DNA of 64,000 nucleotides from Patescibacteria group bacterium (GCA_034520665.1 JAXHNJ010000002.1:352660-416659), one strand, 5' to 3'. Shown: positions 11,290 through 63,739, counted from the first letter of the stretch. Numbers and translations are program-made. The notes: generated from the letters alone by a model not told the origin.

Positions 11290-11310
11290 ATAATAAATAT
11301 TTATTTAAAT

Positions 11311-26067: not shown

Positions 26068-26093
26068 TAAATTTAGCCCAGGTGGCGGAACTG
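25965..26093. repeat. Direct repeat copy A (~129 bp): 3' end of ORF 25333..26067 plus the first 18 nt of tRNA-Leu
   Basis: About 95% identical to 28009..28137. Confidence 0.85.
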
Positions 26094-26162: not shown

Positions 26163-26186
26163 GTGCTAACATTTTTATCAAACTAT

Positions 26187-30505: not shown

Positions 30506-30514
30506 ATTATAAAA

Positions 30515-32327: not shown

Positions 32328-32329
32328 AA

Positions 32330-33310: not shown

Positions 33311-33350
33311 ATCTTTTATTTAATCATATAATTAATAATTATTAAAGAAA

Positions 33351-34892
33351 TTAATTTATTTTTATTTTATAAAAATAAAATCCATTTTTTTCAAATAGTA
33401 ATTTTAAATCTTTATTTTCTTTTATTTTATATAGATTTTTCAAATTTGGTCTAAGATATGGTATTTTTTCATTGTTAAAAATAAGATATTTTATTTCTCT
33501 GTTTCTAGCAAATTCAATTATATCTTCATACTCATTGCTTGGCAAAATATAATTTATTCCTTGAGCCCAATAAGCTATTATTCTTGCATTCGTTAATATT
33601 TTATGGCCAGAGCCATACTTTTCCTTAAAAAATTGACTCATTTCTTTTATTTCTGTATCTCTGAACAAGGAAAAAAATCTGAATTGATAACCATCTTCTA
33701 TAGCAATAACAAACTGAAAAGACAAAAAAACTAATAAAATACTCAATATAACTATCCTCTTCTTTTTAAAGGATAAACTTTGATATAATCTCACTATACC
33801 TACGGCCACAATCATTAATATAATTGGAGTTAGCGGAAAGTAATAGCGGTAATAGACTTTTCCTGAATAATATATAAAAAGGAAAAAGGGTATCCAGCTA
33901 CCTAAAAAATAAAGTTTGTGCAAAATATATTTTTTCTTTTTTGAAAAATAAAAAGCAAAAACTATAAAAATTATCTGAAAAATAAAGTAACAGATAACAT
34001 AGGCTATATTATGAGGTAAATTTCTGAAAAAATTATTAATATAAATAATTATATACGATTTTTTTGGTTTTTCCATTTCTAGCTGGTTACTATTATAATC
34101 TGTATTTTCTTCATTCAACCCAAAGAAAATGATATTTTTTTCAAAATAAGAACTTTTGCTAGAAGAAACCGCGTAATCCTGCTGACCGGTAATTACAAAC
34201 TGGCCTTTTTCTTTATATAAATAAATCAAATAAGGAGAAACAACCATAACCACACCAATTATTAATAAGGTTAAACTAATAAATAATTTCTTTAATCTAA
34301 TTCTTTTATAATAAATATAATTAATAAAAAGCCATAAGATTATAACCGGCAAAAAACTTAAACCAACAATTCTTACATAATAAGAAAAACCAATTAAAAT
34401 ACCTAAGATCAGATACCAAAAAGTATTTTTCTCTTTATTTAAAAGAAGCCAACTTAAAAGAACAATACTAATAAAGAGAAAAGTAAATAAAGCTTCGGTC
34501 CAGGCCGCACCAGAATACCAAATAACATAAGGGTTTAAAATAAATAAAATAATAGATAGAATAGCTATTTTAAAATTAAAAAGTTTTTTAGCCAGAAAAT
34601 AAATAATAATAATTGATAAAAAAGTACTAATTAAGGAAACAATCTGGCTGGCCAGTTCAATATTATTTAAATAAAAATTATAAACATAAATCATAAAAGG
34701 AAAACCAGGCTGTATCAAACTATTTAACCGGGTAGTAGTATTAATCTTTAAACTTTTATCTAGGTTTTCTGCTAATTTGAAATATAAGGCTGAGTCACTA
34801 CTAGAAACCACTGAAGAAGAAAAAGTAAAAAATAAAACAAGAGCTAATAACAATATACCTCCCACAAAATATATTTCTTTTTTTCTAGACAT
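33351..34892 (-). CDS. GT-C-fold membrane glycosyltransferase (ArnT/PMT-like; GT39/GT83-like), tandem paralog 1
   Basis: 513 aa with 11 or more TMs. N-terminal ...SDSALYFKLAENL... periplasmic-loop motif typical of polyprenyl-P-sugar-dependent GT-C enzymes. Confidence 0.55.
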   Translation of the reverse strand: MSRKKEIYFVGGILLLALVLFFTFSSSVVSSSDSALYFKLAENLDKSLKINTTTRLNSLIQPGFPFMIYVYNFYLNNIELASQIVSLISTFLSIIIIYFLAKKLFNFKIAILSIILFILNPYVIWYSGAAWTEALFTFLFISIVLLSWLLLNKEKNTFWYLILGILIGFSYYVRIVGLSFLPVIILWLFINYIYYKRIRLKKLFISLTLLIIGVVMVVSPYLIYLYKEKGQFVITGQQDYAVSSSKSSYFEKNIIFFGLNEENTDYNSNQLEMEKPKKSYIIIYINNFFRNLPHNIAYVICYFIFQIIFIVFAFYFSKKKKYILHKLYFLGSWIPFFLFIYYSGKVYYRYYFPLTPIILMIVAVGIVRLYQSLSFKKKRIVILSILLVFLSFQFVIAIEDGYQFRFFSLFRDTEIKEMSQFFKEKYGSGHKILTNARIIAYWAQGINYILPSNEYEDIIEFARNREIKYLIFNNEKIPYLRPNLKNLYKIKENKDLKLLFEKNGFYFYKIKIN

Positions 34893-35020
34893 TATTAAAG
34901 CTTTTTTAATTATTTTAAAATTTACCCCGCCCCATTGTTTTTTCTTCGTTATAGGCCGGCAGTAAAACTAATAACTTCATATCTTTTATTTAATCATATA
35001 ATTAATAATTATTAAAGAAA

Positions 35021-36565
35021 TTAATTTATTTTTATTTTATAAAAATAAAATCCATTTTTTTCAAATAGTAATTTTAAATCTTTATTTTCTTTTATTTTAT
35101 ATAGATTTTCTAATCTAGGCCTTATCCAAGAAATACGATTTTTATCAAAAATAAGATATTTTATTTCTCTGTTTCTAGCAAATTCAATTATATCTTCATA
35201 CTCATTGCTTGGCAAAATATAATTTATTCCTTGAGCCCAATAAGCTATTATTCTTGCATTCGTTAATATTTTATGGCCAGAGCCATACTTTTCCTTAAAA
35301 AATTGACTCATTTCTTTTATTTCTGTATCTCTGAACAAGGAAAAAAATCTGAATTGATAACCATCTTCTATAGCAATAACAAACTGAAAAGACAAAAAAA
35401 CTAATAAAATACTCAATATAACTATCCTCTTCTTTTTAAAGGATAAACTTTGATATAATCTCACTATACCTACGGCCACAATCATTAATATAATTGGAGT
35501 TAGCGGAAAGTAATAGCGGTAATAGACTTTTCCTGAATAATATATAAAAAGGAAAAAGGGTATCCAGCTACCTAAAAAATAAAGTTTGTGCAAAATATAT
35601 TTTTTCTTTTTTGAAAAATAAAAAGCAAAAACTATAAAAATTATCTGAAAAATAAAGTAACAGATAACATAGGCTATATTATGAGGTAAATTTCTGAAAA
35701 AATTATTAATATAAATAATTATATACGATTTTTTTGGTTTTTCCATTTCTAGCTGGTTACTATTATAATCTGTATTTTCTTCATTCAACCCAAAGAAAAT
35801 GATATTTTTTTCAAAATAAGAACTTTTGCTAGAAGAAACCGCGTAATCCTGCTGACCGGTAATTACAAACTGGCCTTTTTCTTTATATAAATAAATCAAA
35901 TAAGGAGAAACAACCATAACCACACCAATTATTAATAAGGTTAAACTAATAAATAATTTCTTTAATCTAATTCTTTTATAATAAATATAATTAATAAAAA
36001 GCCATAAGATTATAACCGGCAAAAAACTTAAACCAACAATTCTTACATAATAAGAAAAACCAATTAAAATACCTAAAATTAGATACCAAAAAGTATTTTT
36101 TTCTTTATTTAAAAGAAGCCAACTTAAAAAAACAATACTAATAAAGAGAAAAGTAAATAAAGCTTCGGTCCAGGCGGCACCAGAACACCAAATAACATAA
36201 GGGTTTAAAATAAATAAAATAATAGATAGAATAGCTATTTTAAAATTAAAAAGTTTTTTAGCCAGAAAATAAATAATTATTATTGATAAAAAAGTGCTAA
36301 TCAAGGAAACAAGCTGGCTGGCCAGTTCAATATTATTTAAATAAAAATTATAAACATAAATCATAAAGGAATAACCAGGTTGTACCAGGCTATGCAAACT
36401 AGTAGTAGTATTAATCTTTAAACTTTTATCTAGGTTTTCTGCTAATTTGAAATATAAGGCTGAGTCACTGGTAGAAACTACTGAGGAAGAAAAAGTAAAA
36501 AATAAAACAAGAGCTAATAACAATATACCTCCAAGAAAATATATTTCCTTTTTCTTTCCCATCAT
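35021..36565 (-). CDS. GT-C-fold membrane glycosyltransferase (ArnT/PMT-like), tandem paralog 2
   Basis: 514 aa. More than 95% identical to paralog 1, except for the N-terminal residues and a ~15-aa C-terminal patch (DKNRISWIRPRLENL vs NNEKIPYLRPNLKNL). Confidence 0.55.
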   Translation of the reverse strand: MMGKKKEIYFLGGILLLALVLFFTFSSSVVSTSDSALYFKLAENLDKSLKINTTTSLHSLVQPGYSFMIYVYNFYLNNIELASQLVSLISTFLSIIIIYFLAKKLFNFKIAILSIILFILNPYVIWCSGAAWTEALFTFLFISIVFLSWLLLNKEKNTFWYLILGILIGFSYYVRIVGLSFLPVIILWLFINYIYYKRIRLKKLFISLTLLIIGVVMVVSPYLIYLYKEKGQFVITGQQDYAVSSSKSSYFEKNIIFFGLNEENTDYNSNQLEMEKPKKSYIIIYINNFFRNLPHNIAYVICYFIFQIIFIVFAFYFSKKKKYILHKLYFLGSWIPFFLFIYYSGKVYYRYYFPLTPIILMIVAVGIVRLYQSLSFKKKRIVILSILLVFLSFQFVIAIEDGYQFRFFSLFRDTEIKEMSQFFKEKYGSGHKILTNARIIAYWAQGINYILPSNEYEDIIEFARNREIKYLIFDKNRISWIRPRLENLYKIKENKDLKLLFEKNGFYFYKIKIN

Positions 36566-36684
36566 TAAAACTTTTTTAATTATTTTTAAAATCTGTTCCT
36601 CTCTTTATAATAAATAATAATTGAAAAAAAGCAGTTAAGCAAGCCGTTTATCTCTTAAAATAAAAGATGATGGCTCTTTAAATT

Positions 36685-37126: not shown

Positions 37127-39513
37127 AACCAATACAAGAGAAATAAGGAGTTATCCACAAAAATATGGAACAAAAAAACCTTAATCTTAAACAAAAAAGC
37201 GGCTAATTTGCGCCTAATTATTTTTTAAGCGTAAAAGTCGCTTGAAAGCGGCTTTTTTGTTTCTTACATTAACTTCTTTAATAAGAACTTTGACAATTAA
37301 ATAATGGTAACAATAAAGAGCATCTACTTAAAATCAACTAAAAAATTAACTTAAATTCATATTTTTAAGCGAGTAAATCAGGATCTAAAAAAGAGCATAT
37401 GGTGGATGCCTCGACATTAAAAGGCGAAGAAGGACGTAGCAGCCTGCGATAAGCCTCGGTCAGGTGGCAAGCAACCTTTGATCCGGGGATTTCCGAATGG
37501 GGAAACCCGTCTGTCTTTTTAAGGACAGTCATCTATGTCTGAATCTATAGGACATAAGAAGTGCACCTGGGGAATTGAAACATCTTAGTACCCAGTGGAA
37601 AAGAAAAAAAAGGGTTAGCTCATAGCTAATGACGGTTTTTGCCGTCATCTGCTATTTGCTAATATATTCCCAGAGTAGTGGCGAGCGAAATGGGAAAAGT
37701 CCAAACTTGTGAAGTTTTTCCGCTTTTGGCGGGAAAGGGGTCATAAGCCCTTATACTTTACGGGGGTAGTGAGATAATTACTTTTAAATCAGCTTATGAC
37801 TGATTGGGGATAGCGTATGTAGTAGACTTTCCTAAAGTTTATTAGGAAATACTATTACTATTTCCTAGCTAAATCACCTGGAAAGGTGAACCAAAGAAGG
37901 TGATAGTCCTGTAAGCAAAAGGAAATAAACTTCCTCGTGATTATTCTCGAGTACCACGAGACTCGTGAAATCCCGTGGGAATCTGGCATGACTATTTTGC
38001 CAAGACTAAATACTTTTAATGATCGATAGCGAACTAGTACCGTGAGGGAAAGGTGAAAAGCACCCCGGTGAGGGGAATGAAATAGTATCTGAAACCATAT
38101 GCTTACAAGCAGTCGGAGTCCCGCCTTTGGTGTGGATGACGGCGTGCCTATTGAAGAATGAGCCAACGACTTAGTTTTATACAGTTTTCGATTAAGCCCT
38201 TCAAGGGCGAAATCAAAGTGAAAGCAAGCGTGAAAACGCGACCATTAGTTAATTAGTGGTTAGTTATTTTATATAATTAATTCACTAATTTTCTAAAAGA
38301 TTGTATGAACTAGACCCGAAGCCAAGTGAGCTATCCATGGCCAGGATGAACTCTTGAGAAATCAAGGGGGAGGTCCGAACCCACTAGCCGTGCAACGCTA
38401 GGGGATGAGCTGTGGATAGAGGTGAAATGCTAATCGAACTTGGCAATAGCTGGTTCTCCTCGAAATAGCTTTAGGGCTAGCCTTATAAATACTTATATGG
38501 AGGTAGAGCACTGAATGGGTGCGGATGGCGTAAGCCTACCACATCCAACCAAACTCCGAATTCCATGTATTTAATTATAGGAGTCAGACCATGGGGGCTA
38601 AGCTCCATCGGTCAAAAGGGAAACAGCCCAGACCACCATCTAAGGTCCCTAAATTTAGGCTAAGTGTAAAGGCAGTATCGCAACTGAAACAACTAGGAGG
38701 TTGGCTTAGAAGCAGCCATCCTTTAAAGAAAGCGTAACAGCTCACTAGTCAAGTTACTTTGCGCCAAAAATTTATAGGGGCTCAAGCCTAATACCGAAGA
38801 TGTGGTCCCCCACTTATTTATAGGTGGGGGAGGTAGAGGAGCATTCCACGTTTACTGAAGTCAATTTGTTAAAATTGATGGAAAACGTGGAAGTGAGAAT
38901 GTTGGCATAAGTAGCAAAAATCAGGGTGAGAATCCCTGACACCGCAAGCTTAAGGTTTCCTGGGCAACGTGAATCGACCCAGGGTTAGTCGGTCCTAAGG
39001 CGAGGCCGAAAGGCGTAGTCGATGGACAGCTGGTTAATATTCCAGCACCGTCTATTTTGCTTGCAACTAATTGACGCATCCTCAAAGTCTGAGCGCATTT
39101 TGGCTATATGCGTTCCTTCACTTAATTTAAGTGGGGGAGAAGAAAAAACCTCCGGGTGGATTCGATTCAGGTGGAGCGGGTGCCAAGAAAAGATTAGCCG
39201 TGTCTAACTTAATAGATGACCGTACCAAAACCAACACAGGTGAGCGGGCAGTTAATCTGCTAAGGTGTACGAGAGAACCCTCGTTTAGGAACTCGGCAAA
39301 ACAGTGGCCGTAACTTCGGGATAAGGCCTTCCCCCACTTGCTTGCAAGTGTGGGGACGCAGTTAATGATCTCAAGCGACTGTTTATCAAAAACACAGGTC
39401 CCTGCTAAACCGTAAGGTGATGTATAGGGGCTGATGCCTGGCCAGTGTCAGAACGTTAAGGGGATAGGTGCAAGCCTTGAACTGAAGCGCTGATGAACGC
39501 CGGCGATAACTAT

Positions 39514-40250
39514 AAGTGACGATTGTAGTTATAAAATTTGGCTATATGCGGGAAACCCTCCTTCATTTGAAGTACTCGCCTTTTACTAAAAGGCAGTAAC
39601 AATCTTCAAAGGACATAATTGTCAGGAGGCAATCCGCAGGAAAGACTCTTGGTAAGAAAGGATTAAACTATGGTAAAAAATAAATGGTTAAAAAATGTAC
39701 CAATAAATATTGGTAATTATATTGCTGGATTTGTAGACGGTGAAGGAAGCTTCAATGTTTCATTAAGAAAAAGAAAAGATCATAAAATGAAATGGCAAGT
39801 TGTATTAACCTTTAATGTATCTCAAAAAGAAAGAGCTATATTGTCTTTACTTAAACGTTATTTAAGTTGTGGCAGACTACAAACTAGAAAAGATGGAGTA
39901 TCTTATTATGTAGTTTCAAATCCATTATCTATTAAAGAAAAAATTATTCCTTTTTTTAGTAGATTTCCCTTCTTATCACAAAGAAAAAGAAGAAACTTCT
40001 CAATTTTTAAAAGAATTACTAATTTAGTCATTAAAAAGGAGCACTTAAATAGCTCGGGACTAGAAAAAATAATTCAACTCAGAGAAAAATTAAATCCCGG
40101 ACGTGGAAGAAAAAGAAAATATTCATTAAAAGACTATAAACAAAACCAAGAGAATCCTCAGAGACTATACGCCAAACCGCGATCTTTTCGTAAAGAAAAA
40201 AGCGGATGAGATAGTCCGATCTCATAGGTAACTATGAGCTAACAATAAAG
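39514..40250 (+). mobile_element. Group I intron in 23S rRNA at E. coli-equivalent position ~L1917 (helix 69), carrying a LAGLIDADG ORF
   Basis: Exon junction reconstructs ...GGCGAUAACUAU|AAUCGUCCUAAGGUAGCG with a compensatory H69 stem. The 5' exon ends in U and the intron ends in G. A P1-like pairing exists between exon ATAACTAT and intron GTAGTTAT. Confidence 0.7.
39670..40209 (+). CDS. LAGLIDADG homing endonuclease (single-motif, homodimer type), intron-encoded
   Basis: NYIAGFVDGEGSF motif. 179 aa. Embedded in the 23S intron. Confidence 0.85.
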   Translation: MVKNKWLKNVPINIGNYIAGFVDGEGSFNVSLRKRKDHKMKWQVVLTFNVSQKERAILSLLKRYLSCGRLQTRKDGVSYYVVSNPLSIKEKIIPFFSRFPFLSQRKRRNFSIFKRITNLVIKKEHLNSSGLEKIIQLREKLNPGRGRKRKYSLKDYKQNQENPQRLYAKPRSFRKEKSG

Positions 40251-40254
40251 AATC

Positions 40255-40317
<63 letters not shown>

Positions 40318-40826
40318 GAGAACTCTCTCAACGAGGGACTCGGTGAAATTGCATTACGAGTAAAGATGCTCGTTACCCACGGCCGGACGAAAAGACCCCG
40401 TGAAGCTTTACTACAACTTGGCATTGAGTTAAGTTTGTGTTTGCTCAGTATAGGTGGGAGACTTTGAAGTCCCAATTTCGGTTGGGACTGAGTCGCCATG
40501 TGAAATACCACCCTAACGTAAATTTAGTTCTAATTTTTGACCATGAAACTGGTCAGGAAAACAGTGTCTGGTGGGTAGTTTGACTGGGGCGGTCGCCTCC
40601 CAAATTGTAACGGAGGCGCTTACAAAGGTTGGCTAGGCTGGGATGGAAATCCAGCCGATAGTGTAAAGGCATAAGCCAGCTTTACTGCAAGACCTACAAG
40701 TCGCGCAGTTACGAAAGTAGAACTTAGTGATCCGACTCTCGATTATAGGATCGGAGAAGCTCATCGGATAAAAGTTACTCCGGGGATAACAGGCTTATCG
40801 GTTCCAAGAGTTCATATCGACGAACC

Positions 40827-40867
<41 letters not shown>

Positions 40868-40898
40868 AAGAAGCTCCCAAGGGTTTGGCTGTTCGCCA

Positions 40899-40942
<44 letters not shown>

Positions 40943-41765
40943 AAAATATAAATAACGTTCTGTCTCTTTTCGTCCATAAAATTAAAATGATCGTGCTGTC
41001 TATAAATCTGGCTATATGCTGGAAACTCTGGCATCCTCAAATAAGGAGAATAGAGGATTGAAGAATCTCACACTACGTGTTATAATATACGTGAAAATGT
41101 GTTGAGTGCAGACAACCAGCAGGGAAGATTTATAGGGAAAAATATGTTAAATCCAAATTACATTTCTGGCTTTGTAGATGGAGAAGGCAGTTTTCATGTC
41201 GCCATTTACAAAGATAATCGTATGAAACATAATATAAAAATAATACCGGAATTTCATATTAGTCAACGAAAAGATAGTAAAATGATTCTGGAAAAAATAA
41301 AAGATTATCTTCAATGTGGTTATATCAAGAAAAATCATGCTAAAAATAAAAATGATTTGACATATGTTTATGTAGTTAGAAATCGAAAAGACCTTCTAGA
41401 AAAAATAATTCCTTTCTTTGAAAAATACACACTAAAAACAGTGAAGAAAAAAGACTATAACATATTCGCTAAAATAGTAGAACTTATGAATAATAATAGA
41501 CACAGTAAAAAAAGTGGACTTAGAAAAATTATTAAACTTTCTTACTCTATGAATAGAAAAGGTAAATACAGAAGATCAAAAATCTCCCTATAAAAACCCT
41601 CAGAGACTATACGCCGGACTCCAACTATAAAATGGAGAAGATATAGTCCGAACTCTATGGCGACATAGAGAGATAAGTAGAAATAACTTATCCCGTAACC
41701 ATAAACCCATTTTTGAAATTTGAATTTTGGAATTTGGAGTTTGTTGTTACGTAGTAACAATTCTG
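40943..41765 (+). mobile_element. Group I intron in 23S rRNA at E. coli-equivalent position ~L2593, carrying a LAGLIDADG ORF
   Basis: Exon junction reconstructs ...CGUCGUGAGACAGU|UCGGUCUCCUAUCCGCCGUGGGCG. The 5' exon ends in U and the intron ends in G. Shares a ~25-nt core (ATYTGGCTATATGCKGGAAACYCT) with intron 1. Confidence 0.7.
41099..41593 (+). CDS. LAGLIDADG homing endonuclease (single-motif), intron-encoded
   Basis: NYISGFVDGEGSF motif. 164 aa. Inside the second 23S intron. Confidence 0.85.
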   Translation: MLSADNQQGRFIGKNMLNPNYISGFVDGEGSFHVAIYKDNRMKHNIKIIPEFHISQRKDSKMILEKIKDYLQCGYIKKNHAKNKNDLTYVYVVRNRKDLLEKIIPFFEKYTLKTVKKKDYNIFAKIVELMNNNRHSKKSGLRKIIKLSYSMNRKGKYRRSKISL

Positions 41766-42211: not shown

Positions 42212-42329
42212 TCCTGGTGATACTAGCGACTGTGTTACACCCCTTTCCATTCCGAACAGGGCCGTTAAGACAGTCAGCGCCGATGATACTTGGGGTTTAT
42301 CCCTGAGGGAAAGTAGGTCATCGCCAGGA
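42212..42329 (+). rRNA. rrf: 5S ribosomal RNA
   Basis: Helix I CCUGGUGA/UCAUCGCCAGG. Conserved CCGAACAGGGCCGTTAAG and AGTAGGTCATCGCCAGG. An extended precursor stem GAGAGGTAGTA/ATTGCCTCTC flanks it. T-run terminator at 42341. Confidence 0.85.
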
Positions 42330-54884: not shown

Positions 54885-54943
54885 GTTTTACAAATCAGCC
54901 TAAATTTATTATAATATTAGAGAAGCTTAACCAAAAAAAACAA

Positions 54944-55819
54944 ATGCCAAAGATAACAAAAGCAGTCATACCAGCCGCTGGTTTAGGCAGTCGCTTTCTA
55001 CCAGTAACTAAAGCCATACCCAAAGAAATGCTGCCTATTGTTGATAAACCTACTATTCAATACGTAGTTGAAGAATTAGCCTCTTCTGGTATTAAAGATA
55101 TAATAATCGTCACTGACTCTTCTAAAACAGCTATTGAAGATCATTTTGATCATTTAGATTATTTAGAAGAAAAGTTAGCTAAACAGGGCAAAAAAGATAA
55201 GGCTAAACAAATCAAAAAAATTGCTGATTTAGGCAATTTTATTTTTATCCGTCAAAAAGGGCCTTATGGCAACGGTACGCCGGCTTTGTGTGCTGAACCA
55301 CTGGTCAAAAATGAGCCTTTTATTTATATCTGGGGTGATGAATTTATTCACGCTAACCCACCCCGAGTCAAACAAATGCTTGAAGTTTATAAAAAATATA
55401 AATGCTCGGTTATTTCTGCCATTAAGGTGGCTAAAAAAGAGGTTTCCCGCTACGGCGTTGCCAAAGTCAAACATATAGAAAAAAATATTCATCAAATAAA
55501 TGAAATCGTGGAAAAACCGCCTCTTGATAAAGCTCCCTCAAGATTAGCTACTCACGGAGCCTATTTATTGACTCCAACTATATTTAAATTTTTAAAAAAA
55601 CAAAAAATAGGTCAAGGAGGAGAACTTTGGCTAGTAGACGCTATTAATAAGCTAGCTCAACAAGAAAAAGTTCTGGCTTGTCTTATCAAAAAAGGCCGGT
55701 ACTACGACATTGGCAATAAACTCGGTTATATTAAAGCTAATATTGAATTTGGTTTGAAACATCCGGAAATTAAAAAAGATTTAAAAAAATACTTAAAAAA
55801 TATAAAAAGCAATGATTAG
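54944..55819 (+). CDS. galU: UTP--glucose-1-phosphate uridylyltransferase
   Basis: KAVIPAAGLGSRFLPVTKAIPKEMLPIVDKPTIQYVVEE is a near-consensus GalU N-terminus. Confidence 0.9.
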   Translation: MPKITKAVIPAAGLGSRFLPVTKAIPKEMLPIVDKPTIQYVVEELASSGIKDIIIVTDSSKTAIEDHFDHLDYLEEKLAKQGKKDKAKQIKKIADLGNFIFIRQKGPYGNGTPALCAEPLVKNEPFIYIWGDEFIHANPPRVKQMLEVYKKYKCSVISAIKVAKKEVSRYGVAKVKHIEKNIHQINEIVEKPPLDKAPSRLATHGAYLLTPTIFKFLKKQKIGQGGELWLVDAINKLAQQEKVLACLIKKGRYYDIGNKLGYIKANIEFGLKHPEIKKDLKKYLKNIKSND

Positions 55820-57215
55820 TAGAAAATATATAATTCTTGGTATAATCGTTTTAGCTATCCTTGTTCCTATCTTTATTGGCATTTTCTTGAAAGAAGAAGT
55901 AAAAATTCCCAAAAGTGTTACTTTAAAATATTGGATTGTTGAAGGCTCAGAAAAAGACTATCAAGATATTGTTAGCGCTTTTAAAAATTATCATCCCTAT
56001 GTCAAAGTAAGTTTTAGAAAAGTAAAACTGGAAGAATACGAAGACACTTTGATTCAAGCTTGGGCTCGTGATCAAGGTCCGGATATATTTGAGTTGCCTT
56101 CAACTTGGTTAAAAAAATATCAGGAATTCATCACTCCCGCACCGGCTGAAATAACTACCGCTTACTATGAAAATAAAAAAGAATTTTTTCGTAATACTGT
56201 AGAAATAAAATACCGCACAAAAAGCTCTCCCACTTTAGATAATATAAAAAATAATTATGTTGATATAATTTATGATGATGTAGTTTTAAGCAACAATCGG
56301 GGAAAAAGACAAATATACGCCCTGCCTTATAGTATTGATACGTTGGCTGTCTATTATAATAAAGATTTATTAAATAATGCTTATATAGCTCAACCGGCTA
56401 AAACTTGGAATGAACTAGTTCAGCAATCTTCAAAGCTAAGTCTCTACGACAATCAAAATAATATTCTCCAGTCCAGTATAGCTTTAGGTCTTTCTTCAAA
56501 TATTGAGTATCATTATGGAATTCTTTCACTACTAATGATACAAAACGGAGTCAGTATGATTTCTCCCAGCGGAGAAGAAGTTAGTTTTAATAGAAGCCGT
56601 GAAACCACCAATTTAGGAGCTTTGGCTTTAGATTTTTACACCAGTTTTACCAATATAAATAAAGAAACTTATTCCTGGAATTCATCACAACCGGAAAGTT
56701 TAGATAACTTTACTAGTGGTAAATCAGCTTACTATATTGGTACCCTAGCTGATAAATCAGTAATTGATAAAACAGCTAATTTAAATTATGGTGTAACTGA
56801 AATGTTTCATATAAATCCATCTGGTACAGACCGAGTTTTAAATAAAGCCGGTAATCCCGTACAAGTTAATTTTGGCAAATACTGGGTCCATACTGTTGCT
56901 AAAAAAACCAAGTCTCTTCAGGAAGCCTGGGATTTAGTCCAGTTTATAGCTCGGGAAAAAAGAAATCGGCAATACCTAGAAAAAACTGGGAAAATTTCCC
57001 CCCTAAGAAGTATTCTTAATATACAAAAAGAAGATCCTGATTTAGGGCTTTGGGCCCGCCAAGCTTTAACCGCCAAAAATTGGTATACTGGTTATGATGC
57101 TTCAGCTACAAAAAATTATTTTGCTGAAATGATTGAGACTGTAGCTTTAAAAAATAAAAGCAGCAGCCAAGCATTAAATGAAGCTGCTGAAAAAATTGAA
57201 AGGACTTTAGAATGA
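55812..57215 (+). CDS. TM-anchored extracellular solute-binding protein (ABC-type sugar-binding family 1-like), orphan
   Basis: N-terminal TM. SBP_bac_1-like central region (ALPYSIDTLAVYYNKDLL). No permease or ATPase genes adjacent. Stop overlaps the next start (ATGA). Confidence 0.55.
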   Translation: MISRKYIILGIIVLAILVPIFIGIFLKEEVKIPKSVTLKYWIVEGSEKDYQDIVSAFKNYHPYVKVSFRKVKLEEYEDTLIQAWARDQGPDIFELPSTWLKKYQEFITPAPAEITTAYYENKKEFFRNTVEIKYRTKSSPTLDNIKNNYVDIIYDDVVLSNNRGKRQIYALPYSIDTLAVYYNKDLLNNAYIAQPAKTWNELVQQSSKLSLYDNQNNILQSSIALGLSSNIEYHYGILSLLMIQNGVSMISPSGEEVSFNRSRETTNLGALALDFYTSFTNINKETYSWNSSQPESLDNFTSGKSAYYIGTLADKSVIDKTANLNYGVTEMFHINPSGTDRVLNKAGNPVQVNFGKYWVHTVAKKTKSLQEAWDLVQFIAREKRNRQYLEKTGKISPLRSILNIQKEDPDLGLWARQALTAKNWYTGYDASATKNYFAEMIETVALKNKSSSQALNEAAEKIERTLE

Positions 57216-58768
57216 AAAATAATTACAAAATTTTATTTTTAATAATAGGTTTAACTTTTTTAATAACACCTCTCAAGTCAATAGCCTCTCCTTTACCGGA
57301 TATAATGCCTGATTGTGACATTACCGTTTATGAGGTTGAAGAACACGGCACTCATAATTTTGATGACGCTGAAGCCTTTAAATATAATAAAGCAGAAGAA
57401 GGAGGAGAAAAAGAAAGTGATTACGAAAGAGTCTGTAATGGCGACTGTATTGACGCTCGTAATTATGTTCAAATAGGTGACAAAGGGGAAAGCGCTCATG
57501 ATAAATACGGGGACGTCACCCATGTTATTGATTATAATCCCTGCGGTTTTGATGATTTTATCACCCTATTAATTAATGCCTTTCAATTCGGCTTAACCAT
57601 GCTGGCTGTGGTGGTTTTATTCTTCTTTATTTGGGGCGGTTTTGGCTTTATTATTGCCGGCGGTCGGACTGAAAAAATCCAGGAAGCAAAAAAGACTATT
57701 AAAGGCGCTTTTGTCGGTATGTTAATAGTATTATGTGCCTGGATTACAGTAAATTTTTATATTTTTGCTTTTACTGATGATCCTCAAAGCAAAATATTCG
57801 GTGAATTTTGGTGGGGTGGCAGTGAAGAATGCCACGAAGATTTTCCTTTAGAATGCGACAAAAATAATCTTCATCTTGGCTGTGGCGGACCCAAAGATTC
57901 AAGTACTGATACTTATATAAAAGACTTACAAAACGCACTTAATAATTTAGAGGGTTGTGAATGTGGCCCAGTAGATGGTTGTTACGGTGATAAAACAGCT
58001 GACTGTGTGATTGAATTTCAGTTAAGTAATCAGGATGAGATTGGTAATTTTGAAGTAGGAGTAGTGGGAGAAAATACCTGGAACGCTATAAAAACAGGCT
58101 CTGGCAGTTGTCAGGTTGATTATGACACCGAGAAAACTGAAGAGGCTGAATATTGTTGTGGACAAATATCTTTAAAACCCGGTCCTATATGTCTACCTAC
58201 TTGGGAAGAAAATGGCTGTGATAAATACGGCGAAAACTATATGTTATTGGAGAAGAAAAAATGTTCAGAACTCGTATTTTGTCAAGAGGGTTGTTGTATA
58301 CCTGATGATTTAAATAAAGATTGTTATAACTGTACAGGTAACGAATGCCTTCCTTATGGTGATACTTTCAATCATGAGGCAAAATGCAAGGAGGAAAGTA
58401 ATTCTGAAGATTGTCTTTGGCATATTTGTCGCGAAAATTCTACTTCAGTTAATAACTGTTATATCCAAAGAGGGGGTTGTCTCCCTGATGTATCTACTAA
58501 TGAAGTAGCTTGGAGTAAAGAAGCGGCTCAAGAAAAAATGTCAACTATGGATGTATGTAATATGGGAACCTGTACTATACCTTTTACTGATGCCAGTGGT
58601 AATACTTACTATGATTGCTATTGGGAATCCCGCTCAAGATGTGAAGAAATAGAAGGTGAATTTTATTATAAAATTCCTACACCTAGCTCAACAGACGATA
58701 CTGATAGTGACGGTTATGCCAATCTAAATGGTGGGTCGCTGCCAGATATTGAGTGCCGAGTAGATTAA
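57212..58768 (+). CDS. Cys-rich surface protein with an embedded VirB2/TrbC-like (T4SS-pilin-like) two-helix module (518 aa)
   Basis: Signal peptide. Residues ~115-185 (LTMLAVVVLFFFIWGGFGFIIAGGRTEKIQEAKKTIKGAFVGMLIVLCAWITV) are homologous to the three downstream small proteins. Flanked by extracellular domains with 40 or more Cys (CxxC, CC, CxC patterns). Confidence 0.55.
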   Translation: MKNNYKILFLIIGLTFLITPLKSIASPLPDIMPDCDITVYEVEEHGTHNFDDAEAFKYNKAEEGGEKESDYERVCNGDCIDARNYVQIGDKGESAHDKYGDVTHVIDYNPCGFDDFITLLINAFQFGLTMLAVVVLFFFIWGGFGFIIAGGRTEKIQEAKKTIKGAFVGMLIVLCAWITVNFYIFAFTDDPQSKIFGEFWWGGSEECHEDFPLECDKNNLHLGCGGPKDSSTDTYIKDLQNALNNLEGCECGPVDGCYGDKTADCVIEFQLSNQDEIGNFEVGVVGENTWNAIKTGSGSCQVDYDTEKTEEAEYCCGQISLKPGPICLPTWEENGCDKYGENYMLLEKKKCSELVFCQEGCCIPDDLNKDCYNCTGNECLPYGDTFNHEAKCKEESNSEDCLWHICRENSTSVNNCYIQRGGCLPDVSTNEVAWSKEAAQEKMSTMDVCNMGTCTIPFTDASGNTYYDCYWESRSRCEEIEGEFYYKIPTPSSTDDTDSDGYANLNGGSLPDIECRVD

Positions 58769-58786
58769 TATTAATTATATAAATAT

Positions 58787-59134
58787 ATGAAAAAAAAGAT
58801 TATAACCTTATTACTCATTATCAATTTTTTCTTTCCCTTAAGTGCTTTAGCCAATGGCACTTCCAATGTATTACCCAACCCTATGGCCTGTACTAACTTG
58901 CTTTGTCTTTTTATTCAGGTAATCAGAATTCTTTTAGGGGCTGTTGGCCTTTTTGCTTTATTTGTTTTTATATGGGGCGGTTTTTTAATGTTGACTTCGG
59001 CCGGCAACGCTGAAAAAGTTAAACAAGCTAAAGATACTTTGCTATGGGCTTCTTTAGGTATTGTTGTTATCTTAGGCAGTTGGGTGATTATTAGATTTTT
59101 AATGGAAACTGTATTGAGTAGTTCTTTTACCTAA
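58787..59134 (+). CDS. VirB2/TrbC-like T4SS pilin-like protein (115 aa), divergent paralog
   Basis: Signal peptide. Helix-1 LLGAVGLFALFVFIWGGFLMLTSAGNAEKVKQAKDTLLWASLGIVVILGSWVII. Confidence 0.55.
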   Translation: MKKKIITLLLIINFFFPLSALANGTSNVLPNPMACTNLLCLFIQVIRILLGAVGLFALFVFIWGGFLMLTSAGNAEKVKQAKDTLLWASLGIVVILGSWVIIRFLMETVLSSSFT

Positions 59135-59210
59135 AATAAAATTTGACAAAAATCTTATTTTAGGATATAATAGAACAAACATAAAAATTATTATTATTAA
59201 AATTAAGAAA

Positions 59211-59570
59211 ATGAAAAAAATATCTCTAATCTTAGCTCTATTTCTACTAATTTTGCCAACGACTGCTTCAGCTGTTGTGACCAGTTATAGTATTGAAGAC
59301 TTTGGTAGTTCTGTTGGATTAGGCACAGCTGATCTTGTAGACACCGCCATTAACGTTATCCAATGGGTCCTTGGTATTTTAGCTTTAGTAGCTGTAGTTA
59401 TGATTATTTATGGTGGCATTCTTTGGATGACGGCTGCTGGTAATGAAGAAAAGATTGGAAAAGCCAAGAAAGTTATTTCGGCCGCTGTTATTGGTTTAAT
59501 TATTGTCTTGATGGCTTGGGCTATTGTCATCTTTGTGGCCGGTACTACTGCTAATGTAGTTTCTGAATAA
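59211..59570 (+). CDS. VirB2/TrbC-like T4SS pilin-like protein (119 aa)
   Basis: Signal peptide (cleavage ~ASA). IQWVLGILALVAVVMIIYGGILWMTAAGNEEKIGKAKKVISAAVIGLIIVLMAWAIVIFVAG resembles the VirB2 loop ...ISWMFG.... Confidence 0.6.
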   Translation: MKKISLILALFLLILPTTASAVVTSYSIEDFGSSVGLGTADLVDTAINVIQWVLGILALVAVVMIIYGGILWMTAAGNEEKIGKAKKVISAAVIGLIIVLMAWAIVIFVAGTTANVVSE

Positions 59571-59617
59571 TATCTGTATAATAATTATTAAAATATTTTT
59601 AGAAAGGAGGTGAAATA

Positions 59618-59974
59618 ATGAAAAAATTAGCTCTAATTACTTCTTCTGTTTTGTTACTAGCTCTTCCAGTTACTGCTTTAGCTCAAACCTCATACTCCAT
59701 TGGAGATATTGGTGGTGAAGTCGGTTTAGGCACAGCTGATCTTAGAGATACAGTAGTTAATATTATTCAATGGGTGCTTGGTATTTTAGCTTTAGTAGCT
59801 GTAGTTATGATTATTATCGGTGGCTTTCAATGGATGACCGCTGCTGGTAATGAAGAAAGGATTGAAAAAGCTAAGAAAGTTATCTCAGCCGCTGTTATTG
59901 GTTTAATTATTGTCTTGCTGGCCTGGGCTATCGTTATCTTTGTGGCTGGTACTACTTCTAACGTTACTCAATAA
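59618..59974 (+). CDS. VirB2/TrbC-like T4SS pilin-like protein (118 aa), close paralog of 59211..59570
   Basis: Same architecture. Mature region is >75% identical to the preceding gene. Strong SD (AGGAGG). Confidence 0.6.
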   Translation: MKKLALITSSVLLLALPVTALAQTSYSIGDIGGEVGLGTADLRDTVVNIIQWVLGILALVAVVMIIIGGFQWMTAAGNEERIEKAKKVISAAVIGLIIVLLAWAIVIFVAGTTSNVTQ

Positions 59975-59996
59975 ATTATTTTTATTTGAAATATAC

Positions 59997-60028
59997 AAAC
60001 ATTCCCGCTTTCAAAAGGCGGGATGTTT
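59997..60028 (+). terminator. Hairpin AAACAUUCCCGC-UUUCAAAAG-GCGGGAUGUUU after the pilin-like cluster
   Basis: 11-12-bp stem with a U/A-rich 3' flank. Confidence 0.4.
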
Positions 60029-60084
60029 GTTATCATTAAAAAATTAGGATAAAATAAAGGAAGAGCTTACTCTTAATAAAAATA

Positions 60085-62106
60085 TTGCTTTATCCAATGA
60101 ATAAAGAAGAAAAAATTAATAATTATTTAAATTATTTAAACGACTATTTACAAAGAAACAGTAAAAAAATTTTAATAGTTATAATTTTAATATACGTTAT
60201 TATATTTTCTGTTTTATGTTTATACAAATATCTTACCTATAACTATATTGGTATAGATTTGGCTATTTTTAACCAGGTTTTTTATAATTCTAGCCTCGGT
60301 GACTTTTTTGAACTAACTATTCATCCCCATCTTTATCTAGGTGATCACTTCGCTTTAATCATCCCCTTGTTAATACCTTTTTATTTTTTACTTAGAAGTC
60401 CAGTCACTTTATTAATTATGCAAACACTTTTTTTGGCTTTAGGAGCTTGGCCACTATATTTAATCGCCCGGCAGAAATTAAGCAAAAATTTATCTCTTTT
60501 TATAAGCTTTTTTTACCTAAGCCATTTGTTTGTTCATAATATAAATACTTATGAATTTCATATTCTTTCTTTGGCTATACCCTTATTATTTTTCTTATTT
60601 TATTTTTATAAAAAAGGAAACTTTGCTCTTTACACACTTTTTCTGGTTCTCTGTCTGAGTATCAGGGAAGATCTGGCTTTAGTTATCTTTATGTTTGGCT
60701 TATTAGCCCTTATCGATAGAAAAAAATGGCACTGGAGTCTCTTACCTATAATTTTAAGTATCGGCTGGTTTATTTTTGCCATGAAAATGACTGGGGAAAT
60801 ATCTGGTTACGGGCAATATAAATTTGTTCGTTATTATGGCTGGTTAGGTGATGACATTAAATCAATTATTTTAGGCGCTATTAATCATCCCTGGGTTGTT
60901 ATAAAACATATTTTTTCCTTTAGTAATATTTCATTTTTAGTCGGACTATTTCTTCCTTTCCTTTTTTTACCGTTATTAAAGCCAAAATATATTTTGCCCA
61001 GCACTTTAATAATTTTACAAATACTCTTTTTAACAGCCGCTGGGCCACTAGCTCTGGAAATTCATTATGTAGCCCTTATTATCCCTTTTTTATTTATTAG
61101 CCTAGTTTATTCTATAAAAAAAATATATAAAAAAGACTCAAAATACAAAATAACAAGGATATTGAATAGAAATAAAGAAATAATTATTGTTATTCTAATC
61201 TTAGCCAGTCTTTATTCTAGTTTAGTTATGGGACCATTATTTTATCTTAGTCAAGATACTCTTAATTACGCCGAGGCAAAAAAAGATATTAATATTAGAA
61301 AATATTTTACCAGTCAAATTCCCGAAAAGTCAGCCGTAGCTACTGGTTTTCATTTCTTACCCCAATTATCTTCCCGTAAAAAAATATATTCTCTTCATTA
61401 TCAATATTTAGGCAAAAAGCAATACTCTAATATTGATTACTCCATTCCATCCGATGTAGAATATCTTCTTTTTGACATGAATGATTTTTTGTATTATCAA
61501 TTCCTTTATCAGGAAAATGATGAAAATAATATTCCCGGAGCTAGCCGTATTCGTAAACTTATAAAAGAAAATGATTTTCATCTTACAAATTATATTGACA
61601 AATACTTCTTATATACAAAAAAGGGTAAAAGCGTGCCTTTACTTTACGAAAAAGAGGTGGATTTACCAAATCAAATTAATTCTATCAATAAAAAATTTGA
61701 AGCTATAGAATTAAAGGGCTATACTACTGAGAAAATAAAAAAATATTCAATAAAAGATTATAACTATGAAATATTGCCCTTAACTTTATACTGGCAATGC
61801 CTTAATGAAATAGAATTTGATTATCAAATTAAGATTCACTTTACCGGTGAAAACTCTTCCTTTGAAGAAAGTTATCCTTTATCGGCTCTTTACCCCACCC
61901 ATGATTGGAAAAAAAATGAAATAATTAAAGTAAATTATCAGATTCTTATGCCTGAAGCATTCAAAAATATTAAATACCAAATAGGTTTATCTGTTTATCA
62001 TGCTCAAGGCAACATGGGTTTAAATAAAAGTAAGATTTTTCGCCCTCAAATCAGCCAAATAGACAAATTTGGGAGGATTAATCTTTTAGGGGTAAATCAA
62101 AATTAG
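60085..62106 (+). CDS. DUF2079-family polytopic membrane protein (GT-C-like) with C-terminal soluble domain
   Basis: Pattern ...DLAIFNQVFYNSSLGDFF...HLYLGDHFALIIPLLIPFYF...LLIMQTLFLALGAWPLY... is typical of DUF2079. Confidence 0.55.
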   Translation: MLYPMNKEEKINNYLNYLNDYLQRNSKKILIVIILIYVIIFSVLCLYKYLTYNYIGIDLAIFNQVFYNSSLGDFFELTIHPHLYLGDHFALIIPLLIPFYFLLRSPVTLLIMQTLFLALGAWPLYLIARQKLSKNLSLFISFFYLSHLFVHNINTYEFHILSLAIPLLFFLFYFYKKGNFALYTLFLVLCLSIREDLALVIFMFGLLALIDRKKWHWSLLPIILSIGWFIFAMKMTGEISGYGQYKFVRYYGWLGDDIKSIILGAINHPWVVIKHIFSFSNISFLVGLFLPFLFLPLLKPKYILPSTLIILQILFLTAAGPLALEIHYVALIIPFLFISLVYSIKKIYKKDSKYKITRILNRNKEIIIVILILASLYSSLVMGPLFYLSQDTLNYAEAKKDINIRKYFTSQIPEKSAVATGFHFLPQLSSRKKIYSLHYQYLGKKQYSNIDYSIPSDVEYLLFDMNDFLYYQFLYQENDENNIPGASRIRKLIKENDFHLTNYIDKYFLYTKKGKSVPLLYEKEVDLPNQINSINKKFEAIELKGYTTEKIKKYSIKDYNYEILPLTLYWQCLNEIEFDYQIKIHFTGENSSFEESYPLSALYPTHDWKKNEIIKVNYQILMPEAFKNIKYQIGLSVYHAQGNMGLNKSKIFRPQISQIDKFGRINLLGVNQN

Positions 62107-63739
62107 GCTTAAATATCTTTACTTCACCTTTTGTAAAAACTAATTTAAATAATTCACTCTGGTCTGGATTATATTTTCCATGCCTTTTTTCAAATGGGCT
62201 AAAAAAGATATAATTTATATTTATCTCTTTAATAAACTCTCGGCGCCAGTCATCACTAGTATTTTCTTGCCAAAACTTTTGCATTTTTTCTCTCTTAGCC
62301 CAAAAATTTATTGTTTCCACCCAATGACTTAAATAAGTTTTTTTCAAAGCAAATCCTGATATAAAGTGAGAAGGAACATGATCTCCGAAAATTACATCCT
62401 GGTCGGACATTTTTTCTTTTAGCCAATTAAAAGTATTTTTATATTCCTTATCTAAATACATATATTCAGGAGGCTCTTTAAATTGAGGATCAGAATAAAA
62501 ATAAAAATCTTCTGCCAAGACATATAAATTAGAAAAACCAAAAAACAATATTGATAGCATTAATACTACCGGAGCGTAAAATATTTTTGAGAGATTAAAT
62601 TTTTTATTTAAATAATGATATAAGCTAACAAGACCCACAAAAGCCATTAGACTCAAGGGTATTTGTAATCCCTGAGTAAGACGTCTTTGAAAACCTAAAG
62701 GAGCAAAAATCAGAGCTGACTGCACGATTAACCAGGTTATTAAAAATACAAACTTTTCATTTTTTATTTTTTTGATAACTCCCCACAAAGCAAAAGGGGT
62801 TAAAAACCCATAACTAATTATTACTACCCAAAAATATGGCGTTAGACAAACATTGCTACTGGCCCGGTCAATAGCCACAGGATTATAAATCAAAATCATA
62901 AAGTGATAAAGAACCGGCGGTATAATTAAAAACAGATAGACCAAATATTTTTTAATATAATCCCATTTAATCTGCCAATCTCTAAATGATTTAACAAAAA
63001 TATAGATTAATAAAACAGCTAAGATAGTTGGCAAATGAAAAGGATGAAAAAACATCAAAGAATTTGCCAGAAATCCAGCCACCAGTAAATAAATCCATTT
63101 ATTTTTAATAAAAGAATAATAAGCCAAAAATAAAGTGCTGATAATAAGAATAGTGGCCATAATAAAATGGGGGCTATGGTAAAGGGTTAAAAAATTATAG
63201 CCTTCGGACACCCATAAATCCATCGGATAATTTTTTAATGTAATTTGATTATTAAATAAATTTCTAATTAAAGGCATGAAATATCCGCCTAATCCCGAAG
63301 CCATTATAGAGAAAATAAAGCCGTATTTTCTTGATTTTACTTTTTTAAAAAAATAACTGATAAAAAAGTACAAAACAAAAACAAATAAAAATATGAGTAA
63401 AATTCTAGAAATCTGATAAGCGGCTATACTGGATAAATTAAATACACGAGCCAAAAAGCCAATAATCAGCCAAAAGGGATTAAAAATAAAAGGTGAGTGG
63501 CTTTCCGAAGTAAAAAGATCCTGAAAAATTAAGTGACCTTCTTTAGCCTGTCCAATATAAGAGTAGTAAACACTAAAATCCCCGGCCGCCATCGAATGTA
63601 TGCCCGGAAAAAATTTATCGGCTGGCTTTATTAAATAGCCGTAGATTAAGGAACTACTAGTTATAATCACTAAAATAAAACCAACCATTAAAACAAATTT
63701 ACATTCTTTTTTTGATATATACTTGAATAAATTTTTCAT
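62078..63739 (-). CDS. Polytopic membrane protein, GT-C-fold glycosyltransferase-like (YfhO/ArnT-like), hypothetical
   Basis: 13 or more TM segments with a C-terminal soluble domain. Convergent with, and overlapping, the end of the DUF2079 gene. Confidence 0.4.
   Translation of the reverse strand: MKNLFKYISKKECKFVLMVGFILVIITSSSLIYGYLIKPADKFFPGIHSMAAGDFSVYYSYIGQAKEGHLIFQDLFTSESHSPFIFNPFWLIIGFLARVFNLSSIAAYQISRILLIFLFVFVLYFFISYFFKKVKSRKYGFIFSIMASGLGGYFMPLIRNLFNNQITLKNYPMDLWVSEGYNFLTLYHSPHFIMATILIISTLFLAYYSFIKNKWIYLLVAGFLANSLMFFHPFHLPTILAVLLIYIFVKSFRDWQIKWDYIKKYLVYLFLIIPPVLYHFMILIYNPVAIDRASSNVCLTPYFWVVIISYGFLTPFALWGVIKKIKNEKFVFLITWLIVQSALIFAPLGFQRRLTQGLQIPLSLMAFVGLVSLYHYLNKKFNLSKIFYAPVVLMLSILFFGFSNLYVLAEDFYFYSDPQFKEPPEYMYLDKEYKNTFNWLKEKMSDQDVIFGDHVPSHFISGFALKKTYLSHWVETINFWAKREKMQKFWQENTSDDWRREFIKEININYIFFSPFEKRHGKYNPDQSELFKLVFTKGEVKIFKPNFDLPLKD

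Follow-up and report, generated by a model that had tools for sequence, protein, structure and literature searches.

Many Patescibacteria encode a type IV secretion system (T4SS), and in some of them VirB2-like pilin genes stand in arrays. In one account the models PF18895 and PF04956 and the CONJScan profiles were run against 3,035 Patescibacteria genomes; VirB4 was found in 2,417 of the 3,035 assemblies (~80%) and VirB2-like pilins in 1,948 VirB4-positive assemblies, but near virB4 in only 1,135 (Quinonero-Coronel et al. 2025, PMC12102498). It lists 441 arrays of 2–11 pilin genes each in 383 assemblies, and a 2025 review names arrays as a notable feature of patescibacterial T4SSs (PMC12857230). 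In Southlakia epibionticum the pilin array is essential (Wang et al. 2023, PMC10633639; PMC12102498). Pilin arrays, among them some far from the T4SS motor, have thus already been published for the phylum (PMC10633639, PMC12102498, PMC12857230). Here we describe a new example, an array of four T4SS-type pilin genes in a stretch of 64,000 nucleotides (called the window throughout) from Patescibacteria group bacterium (GCA_034520665.1 JAXHNJ010000002.1:352660-416659). New at this locus are a clade-conserved gene cassette that is unlinked to virB4, evidence for major and minor subunits, and fusions of pilin modules to ectodomains.

Arrays away from virB4 are known from the class ABY1. In Table S3 of the account cited above, ABY1 VirB2 triplets are listed with "VirB4 proximity: No", virB4 and trsD being ~230 genes away; in GCA_000991205.1, for example, the pilins are genes 464–466 and virB4/trsD are genes 233–234 (PMC12102498). 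The rows drawn from this table belong to ABY1 genomes other than the cassette-bearing assemblies described below. ABY1 pilins are also detected by the CONJScan profile T_virB2, which is independent of PF18895 (PMC12102498). With the published patescibacterial arrays, as far as they are described in the available parts of PMC12102498 and PMC10633639, the window array shares the family PF18895, the phylum, the chromosomal location and the tandem arrangement of 2–11 small genes, and like the ABY1 arrays (PMC12102498) it is not near virB4. The array of Southlakia epibionticum ML1, in contrast, lies within the T4SS cluster, whereas no T4SS gene was found around the window array, neither in the 57 kb before it nor in the 4 kb after it.

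Four tandem genes encode T4SS-type pilins

All coordinates are positions in the window, and the proteins are named after their lengths. The array consists of the following genes:

57212–58768, + strand: A518, the "big pilin", 518 aa; PF18895 and PF01471 above cut-off, hydropathy, cysteine map and an alignment of eight homologues
58787–59134, + strand: B115, 115 aa, B-type pilin and candidate minor subunit; PF18895 and orthologues at the same position
59211–59570, + strand: C119, 119 aa, C-type pilin with an IIYGG core; PF18895
59618–59974, + strand: D118, 118 aa, D-type pilin and candidate major subunit; PF18895, NF045849 and core conservation

The four open reading frames (ORFs) are paralogous T4SS-type (VirB2-superfamily) pilins in a genome of the Candidate Phyla Radiation (CPR), whose closest named relatives are Ca. 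Kerfeldbacteria. A cluster of four such paralogues had been proposed in a first-pass annotation made from the sequence, together with a search with the Pfam T4SS_pilin model, and this search confirmed it: all four proteins scored above the curated gathering threshold of PF18895 (26.6 bits), with 33.7 bits for A518, 39.9 for B115, 49.5 for C119 and 54.6 for D118. All 44 homologues that were aligned match PF18895 as well, and a profile made from them returned A518, B115, C119 and D118 as the only matches in a six-frame scan of the whole window. Four consecutive pilin-module genes agree with the published definition of a patescibacterial array (2–11 genes in tandem or with one non-pilin gene between). 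The NCBIfam model NF045849 (Mbov_0395 pilin-like conjugal transfer protein, cut-off 40 bits) was exceeded by D118 (44.1 bits), while B115 (38.1), C119 (37.6) and A518 (15.3) remained below. The exact proteins are deposited at NCBI, in a metagenome-assembled genome with a contig of 698,002 bp. In these records MDZ7798816.1 (U5L76_04365) is a "hypothetical protein", and MDZ7798818.1 and MDZ7798819.1, which correspond to C119 and D118, were both named "pilin" by the annotation pipeline PGAP.

The resemblance of the core to VirB2 and RP4 TrbC, also claimed at first, is only indirect: none of the four window pilins matched the classical TrbC/VirB2 family PF04956 at E ≤ 1. Sixteen of the 44 close D118 homologues matched PF04956 at E ≤ 0.01 (best 9.2e-7), but 28 of the same 44 also matched the unrelated membrane family DUF898 at E ≤ 0.01, indicating transmembrane bias; the PF04956 evidence is therefore soft. 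A pilin encoded on another patescibacterial contig (L011, see below) reached 33.7 bits with PF04956 at a cut-off of 27.9.

By hydropathy, the N-terminus of all four proteins resembles a signal peptide and has an A-x-A site; two long hydrophobic helices come after it. The AlphaFold2 model of D118, computed from the 44-sequence alignment, has a signal helix and a hairpin (residues 39–73 and 79–117) with a mean pLDDT (the model's confidence measure) of 78 and 82–94 in the hairpin, in agreement with the signal peptide and two-helix architecture assigned earlier. A search with sequence profiles against the PDB gave no solved structure of any PF18895 homologue. C119 and D118 carry the motif IIYGGILWMTAAGNEEKIGKAKK / IIIGGFQWMTAAGNEERIEKAKK, followed by AWAIVIFVAG; B115, to which the same motif had been ascribed, has a looser version of it, FIWGGFLMLTSAGNAEKVKQAKD, and a conserved NPxxC..LC head. 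The polar loop motif G-N/R-x-E-K-I/V-x-x-A-K is conserved. Nearly invariant, too, is the C-terminal tail of D118, TTxNVT (residues 112–117), in which T112, T113, N115, V116 and T117 each show full or at least 90% conservation among the 44 homologues. It is rich in threonine and contains an N-x-T sequon, whereas C119 of the window has NVV at this place and no NVT sequon. The tail may serve for modification or for contacts in packing.

C119 and D118 are 76.9% identical at the protein level, consistent with the >75% noted before, and 79% identical at the DNA level; the other five pairs of the array are 29–42% identical. The conclusion drawn from this earlier, that the duplication is recent, had to be given up. 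The core types IIIGGFQWM (D) and IIYGG (C) recur across related genomes, and D118 is closer to its positional orthologue in L002 (93% over the whole protein) than to C119 (77% over the whole protein, 84% in the core). In the N-terminal parts, on the other hand, paralogues of one genome resemble each other more closely (97% in L003) than proteins of different genomes do (64–71% between the window and L003), which is why most paralogues cluster by genome in the whole-protein tree. The dS values are similar, with 0.44 between C119 and D118 and 0.51 between D118 and its L002 orthologue. A simple recent duplication is rejected on the basis of this pattern of core and N-terminal identities across genomes. 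The best reading would be an old two-type arrangement with partial gene conversion, the latter being suggested by the N-terminal parts that are more alike within than between genomes.

Expression signals and conservation point to a major subunit

The following signals were found around the genes:

54887–54915, + strand: promoter-like TTTACA-17-TATAAT (11/12 matches), ahead of the NTP-transferase gene described below; from a consensus scan only
59143–59171, + strand: perfect sigma-70 promoter TTGACA-17-TATAAT, 40 nt upstream of C119; consensus scan
59602–59613, + strand: consensus Shine-Dalgarno sequence GAAAGGAGGTGA, ahead of D118
60003–60023, + strand: intrinsic-terminator-like hairpin with a 9-bp stem and five G-C pairs, closing the pilin unit

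The site at 54887–54915 is likely to be the start of a first transcription unit. The perfect promoter motif ahead of C119 occurs once in the 64-kb window, with 0.01 matches expected, and is conserved in 12 of 12 positions in L002, L003 and L004. Likewise, the Shine-Dalgarno sequence GAAAGGRGGTGA has a single match in the window (0.01 expected), directly before D118. GAAAGG(A/G)GGTGA precedes a D-type gene (with the IIIGGFQWM core) in all eight genomes compared, and in L006 the Shine-Dalgarno sequence also stands before a C-type copy, as GAAAGGTGGTGA. A GC-rich hairpin follows the last pilin gene in seven of the eight genomes, none being evident in L014. Comparable promoter or Shine-Dalgarno signals are missing for A518 and B115, and B115 has no strong ribosome-binding site.

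The 83-residue core of D118 is 92–95% identical to that of the orthologues in L002, L003, L006, L013 and L014. The three most distant of these genomes are L006, L013 and L014; in them, GalU is only 51–57% and the solute-binding protein of the same locus only 37–42% identical to the window copies. The ratio of nonsynonymous to synonymous substitutions (dN/dS) of D118 is 0.05–0.11, with dS at least 1.4 or not computable except against the closest relative. Conservation and expression signals of D118 fit an abundant, tightly packed structural subunit. By these features D118 would be the major subunit, with B115 and A518 as candidates for minor ones.

A518 joins a pilin module to PG_binding_1 and cysteine-rich domains

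Five regions can be distinguished in A518:

residues 1–26: signal peptide
residues 27–111: acidic ectodomain with four cysteines
57545–57772, + strand (residues ~112–187): pilin two-helix module; PF18895 and hydropathy
57917–58090, + strand (residues 236–293): PG_binding_1 domain (PF01471), predicted to lie on the outer side of the membrane
residues 301–518: cysteine-rich acidic C-terminal region with 21 cysteines

A fourth copy of the module had been said to be embedded in the 518-aa protein, and there it was indeed located. The PG_binding_1 match scored 24.3 bits (cut-off 23), and the same part gave weak matches in the PDB, namely to the peptidoglycan-binding part of the phiKZ endolysin gp144 (E 0.04). 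Since 33 of the 34 cysteines are found within the two predicted outer domains, the protein fits a topology with both ends outside the membrane. The AlphaFold2 model of A518 is of low confidence (pLDDT 48) and too poor for a fold search. A HMMER scan of 1.84 billion representative sequences with A518 gave 14 clusters at E ≤ 1e-30; a few dozen span both the pilin and the peptidoglycan-binding part, and a cysteine-rich C-terminal extension like that of A518 is present in only ~5.

Fusions of a different kind were found in other loci. In L015 a 635-aa protein (7540–9447, + strand) consists of a 545-aa Beta_helix/NosD-like domain followed by a C-terminal B-type pilin module, and is a candidate for a pilin-anchored adhesin or glycan-degrading enzyme. 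In L011 a pilin module forms the N-terminus of a TrbL/VirB6-like polytopic protein (10301–11599, + strand). As judged from the domain architectures, the pilin hairpin repeatedly serves in the phylum as a carrier of extracellular or membrane domains, and this suggests for A518 the role of a base or nucleator tethered to the wall, or else that of an adhesin at the tip which binds to a wall. Besides, six to eight matches to the pilin module were seen in single proteins of 500–820 aa (P0333, P0366, P0369, P0373 and others), that is, as tandem repeats.

The array is part of a conserved cassette

The pilin genes are flanked by genes that recur with them in related genomes:

54944–55819, + strand: NTP_transferase, GalU-like sugar-1-phosphate nucleotidyltransferase (PF00483, 1.2e-30), first gene of the cassette
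55812–57215, + strand: membrane-anchored family-1 sugar-type solute-binding protein, 467 aa; PDB sequence matches and PF01547 of the orthologues
60085–62106, + strand: DUF2079 polytopic membrane protein (PF09852, 3.2e-66)
62078–63739, − strand: conserved 553-aa polytopic membrane protein, convergent with DUF2079, with orthologues in all cassettes

The NTP-transferase gene overlaps the solute-binding gene by 8 nt and is found upstream of the cassette in L002–L006, L008, L012–L014 and L017. Among solved sugar-binding proteins, PDB 3uor was matched by the window solute-binding protein at 1.5e-10; its orthologues carry PF01547 (SBP_bac_1), whereas the window copy has no Pfam match at E ≤ 1. No ABC permease was found in the window. 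In the window and in L002, L013 and L014, the stop codon of the solute-binding gene and the start of the big-pilin gene (A518 in the window) share 4 nt (ATGA). The two genes abut elsewhere, and their spacing over all these loci is −4 to +3 nt. A membrane-anchored solute-binding protein upstream had been recognised at the outset, as had membrane proteins downstream, of which the first is DUF2079; the label "GT-C-like" found no support in the case of the 553-aa protein, which has no match to a Pfam family or PDB entry.

A comparison of related genomes, also proposed in the first-pass annotation, revealed a fixed gene order: NTP-transferase, anchored solute-binding protein, big pilin with PG_binding_1, one B-type and two to four C/D-type pilins, DUF2079, and a gene for a ~550-aa membrane protein on the opposite strand. 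DUF2079 always directly follows the last pilin gene, the big pilin carries PG_binding_1 in every cassette inspected, and orthologues of B115 stand at the same position in all cassettes with 46–75% identity. After the cassette usually come genes for a GT2 glycosyltransferase, a GT87/MptA-like protein, another ~540-aa membrane protein and phosphoglucose isomerase. The order was found in L002, L003/L005, L004, L006 (Ca. Kerfeldbacteria), L012 (complete genome CP060223.1), L013, L014, L015 and L017 and a partial one in L007, L008 and L016; the assemblies bearing the cassette include GCA_023898465, GCA_040960375 and GCA_043812155. The cassette is kept in at least 10 related genomes, its gene order recurs in every relative inspected, and it persists where the solute-binding protein is only 37–43% and DUF2079 only 31% identical to the window copies.

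Comparison with described pilins

Within the phylum, the window array also stands apart in other respects. Published arrays have a mean identity of 25% and a maximum of 54% within an array (a descriptive statistic), compared to 77% for C119/D118 (PMC12102498); the D-type member is near-invariant between genomes, whereas the literature stresses "highly variable" arrays; and the available parts of the published accounts of patescibacterial arrays make no mention of a fixed cassette context or of a pilin-PG_binding fusion. Tandem paralogues are also known from the VirB2 arrays of Bartonella and Anaplasma, which are divergent and thought to serve antigenic or host-range variation (as cited in PMC12102498), whereas the main paralogue of the window is under extreme purifying selection.

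The classical pilins VirB2, TrbC and TraA share with the window proteins the signal peptide, the two hydrophobic helices, the short basic loop and the small size. They come from diderms and have VirB5, a cyclase or an acetylase as partners, whereas the window organism is a monoderm without an outer membrane, and none of these partners is in view at the locus. The Mycoplasma proteins of family NF045849 (Mbov_0395 / MMCAP2_0565) are likewise pilin-like and belong to wall-less or monoderm bacteria, but they are encoded on mobile integrative and conjugative elements together with transfer genes, whereas the window genes are chromosomal, arrayed and unlinked to transfer genes.

Type IV pilins may have adjacent glycosyltransferase genes, as in the case of TfpW and PilO/PglL. 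The analogy to the window lies in a pilin gene next to that of a polytopic membrane protein and in an exposed tail rich in Ser/Thr; type IV pilins are, however, a different superfamily, and at this locus DUF2079 and the 553-aa protein are purely hypothetical modifiers of the pilins.

Probable assembly by a T4SS encoded elsewhere

We consider it probable that the four proteins are bona fide VirB2-type pilins which are assembled into a pilus or conduit by a T4SS encoded elsewhere, D118 together with C119 being the major and B115 and A518 the minor subunits. The data above show the family membership, the topology, the tandem array, the synteny across the clade, the expression signals and the strong purifying selection; that the pilins polymerise into a filament, need VirB4 to do so and divide into major and minor subunits, we infer. 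In a Patescibacterium related to the ABY1/Kerfeldbacteria group, with the array on its chromosome, each pilin would leave through Sec, lose its signal peptide to signal peptidase I and stay in the membrane, a hairpin whose two ends face outwards. A monoderm-type T4SS (VirB4/TrsD/PrgI) from another place on the chromosome would then extract hairpins from this pool and polymerise them, yielding a pilus or wall-spanning conduit through which the cell touches a host cell or exchanges material with it. D118 and C119 would be abundant and B115 and A518 present in low copy number, and the peptidoglycan-binding domain and the disulfide-rich outer domain of A518 could tether the base to the own cell wall or bind the wall of the host at the tip.

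That the source genome has a VirB4 of its own is made plausible, indirectly, by the ~80% of Patescibacteria assemblies with VirB4 and by the ABY1 genomes in which virB4 accompanies unlinked pilin triplets (PMC12102498). A physical link between PF18895 pilins and T4SS genes exists in another Patescibacterium. On L011, a 560-kb Microgenomatia contig, genes for a pilin (PF18895 and PF04956), a pilin-TrbL/VirB6-like fusion, PrgI, a TrsD-like protein and VirB4 follow each other. When the VirB4 of L011 was used as query against the protein database, all of the 120 matches listed were from Microgenomatia, with at least 79% identity. The L011 cluster is preceded by a Shedu (SduA_C) defence gene, ~0.5 kb ahead of its first pilin gene.

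Several observations weigh against assembly by a T4SS. A scan of the 53 larger ORFs of the window gave no VirB4, VirB6, PrgI/VirB3, TrsD or coupling protein, and the earlier statement that VirB4, VirB6 and VirD4 are missing within 10 kb thus extends to the whole 64 kb; as far as the window reaches, there is no virB4 near the array (within ~20 genes). The same scan revealed no relaxase and no integrase. T4SS genes were also missing within 10 kb of the cassette in L002, L003, L004, L006, L012–L015 and L017, and the constant neighbours of the cassette are envelope and glycan genes rather than T4SS genes. Fold searches returned only generic helical hairpins, with thousands of unrelated structures from which the pilin hairpin was indistinguishable. 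Finally, the available parts of the literature on patescibacterial T4SSs report no observation of a pilus built from PF18895 proteins.

The strongest competitor, which we nevertheless regard as unlikely, is a self-contained envelope module independent of VirB4, in which the hairpins anchor or scaffold outer domains (peptidoglycan-binding, cysteine-rich, beta-helix). The partners would be the co-transcribed solute-binding protein and the flanking DUF2079 protein and glycosyltransferases, for instance to make a glycoconjugate layer on the surface or to hold it there, and the pilins might be glycosylated on the TTxNVT tail. Such a module would account for the order from the solute-binding protein through the pilin-peptidoglycan-binding fusion, the pilins and DUF2079 to the 553-aa protein, which is kept in at least 10 genomes although the flanks are only 31–43% identical, and for the overlapping or abutting solute-binding and big-pilin genes; the genes for GT2, GT87/MptA-like, PMT_2, phosphoglucose isomerase and GalU proteins around the cassette, the beta-helix fusion of L015 and the conserved residues of the tail are in line with it. 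This evidence is, however, one of synteny, and synteny within one clade can be inherited order. The glycosylation is hypothetical, and C119 is without the sequon; the very strong expression signals and the extreme conservation of one small subunit suit a polymer better than an anchor; and in other Patescibacteria genes of the PF18895 family do stand close to virB4, as on L011 and in the published assemblies (PMC12102498).

Still less probable, in our view, is that the proteins are T4SS components which form a short channel or stalk through membrane and wall, like the small membrane proteins of Gram-positive conjugation, and no extended pilus. Patescibacterial VirB4 proteins are nested in the monoderm mating-pair-formation class MPF-FATA, whose members are generally without pili (PMC12102498), and the direct fusion of the pilin module to a VirB6/TrbL-like polytopic protein on L011 would suit a channel. 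The promoter, ribosome-binding site and terminator of C119/D118 suggest, however, a copy number above the need of a channel, and the preference of the reviews for a pilus-like structure, though without data, also speaks for a filament (PMC12857230).

A functionless remnant of an integrated conjugative element is very improbable: relatives in PF18895 and NF045849 do occur on mobile elements such as those of Mycoplasma, according to the family description, and a tRNA-Ser gene lies ~6 kb upstream, but neither an integrase nor a relaxase nor any other gene for transfer was found in the 64 kb, at least 10 genomes have the same chromosomal neighbours, all ORFs are intact, dN/dS is 0.05–0.2 and the expression signals are conserved. 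We reject a mobile-element origin in view of the integrase and relaxase missing from these 64 kb, the conserved chromosomal synteny and the strong purifying selection. Hardly any credit can be given to the idea that the Pfam matches are false positives caused by the hydrophobic two-helix composition, as the DUF898 matches and the generic hairpins of the fold searches could suggest, because four adjacent genes score 7–28 bits above the curated cut-off, the polar loop motif is conserved, family members stand beside virB4 on L011 and near it in 1,135 assemblies (PMC12102498), and T_virB2 detects ABY1 pilins independently.

A bolder reading can be put forward, which we offer as speculation with small chances of being correct. 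In the ABY1/Kerfeldbacteria-related clade the pilins may have moved from the T4SS locus into a fixed cassette and form a modular "display pilus", with a near-invariant major subunit glycosylated on the TTxNVT tail and minor subunits fused to ectodomains (peptidoglycan-binding, cysteine-rich, beta-helix) that contact or digest the wall of the host. Its partners would be the co-translated anchored sugar-binding protein and possibly the polytopic membrane proteins as glycosyl-transferring enzymes, and a structure of this kind would be undescribed for any T4SS.

In the sole species tested, neither the T4SS nor its pilin array is dispensable. The locus offers a clean experimental case, since D118 is very conserved, apparently very highly expressed and thus a candidate for purification and cryo-electron microscopy. 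It also provides two candidate kinds of minor pilins, one with a peptidoglycan-binding domain, and its fixed gene context points to testable partners, the solute-binding protein and DUF2079. Patescibacteria account for a large share of bacterial diversity, and their members are mostly attached to other cells.

Other features of the window

The window is an ordinary CPR/Patescibacteria chromosome, with genes for UvrB, sigma-70, DNA polymerase I, the delta subunit of DNA polymerase III and phosphoribosyl pyrophosphate synthase, and it is rich in genes for glycosyltransferases and polytopic membrane proteins. The region 30000–36600 has a very low GC content (0.23–0.26, compared to ~0.35 elsewhere) and encodes a methyltransferase, GT1 and GT2 proteins and a pair of PMT_2 (GT-C) membrane protein paralogues; perhaps it is an island for envelope glycosylation that varies or was acquired. 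Two further genes may encode surface or adhesion proteins of an epibiont: one product is large, of secreted type and has PKD and Lamin-tail domains (19405–21675, − strand), the other has a FecR domain (13598–15337, − strand).

The 23S rRNA gene (37379–40997) extends ~700 nt beyond the Rfam model and holds an ORF for a LAGLIDADG_1 homing endonuclease (39670–40209, + strand, 76.8 bits). The insertion is intron-like, as is typical of the rRNA genes of CPR. A second LAGLIDADG_1 ORF (41099–41593, + strand, 91.9 bits) lies in the spacer between 23S and 5S rRNA, outside the 23S match. The 5S rRNA gene is located at 42213–42329, and since there is no 16S rRNA gene in the window, the rRNA genes are unlinked. 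Far from them, at 21741–22190 (− strand), a small member of the "23S rRNA-intervening sequence protein" family is encoded (PF05635, 58.7 bits). A 476-aa ORF with a GTG start and no family match (26082–27512, + strand) begins inside a tRNA-Leu gene (26076–26162), and its true start is therefore further downstream.

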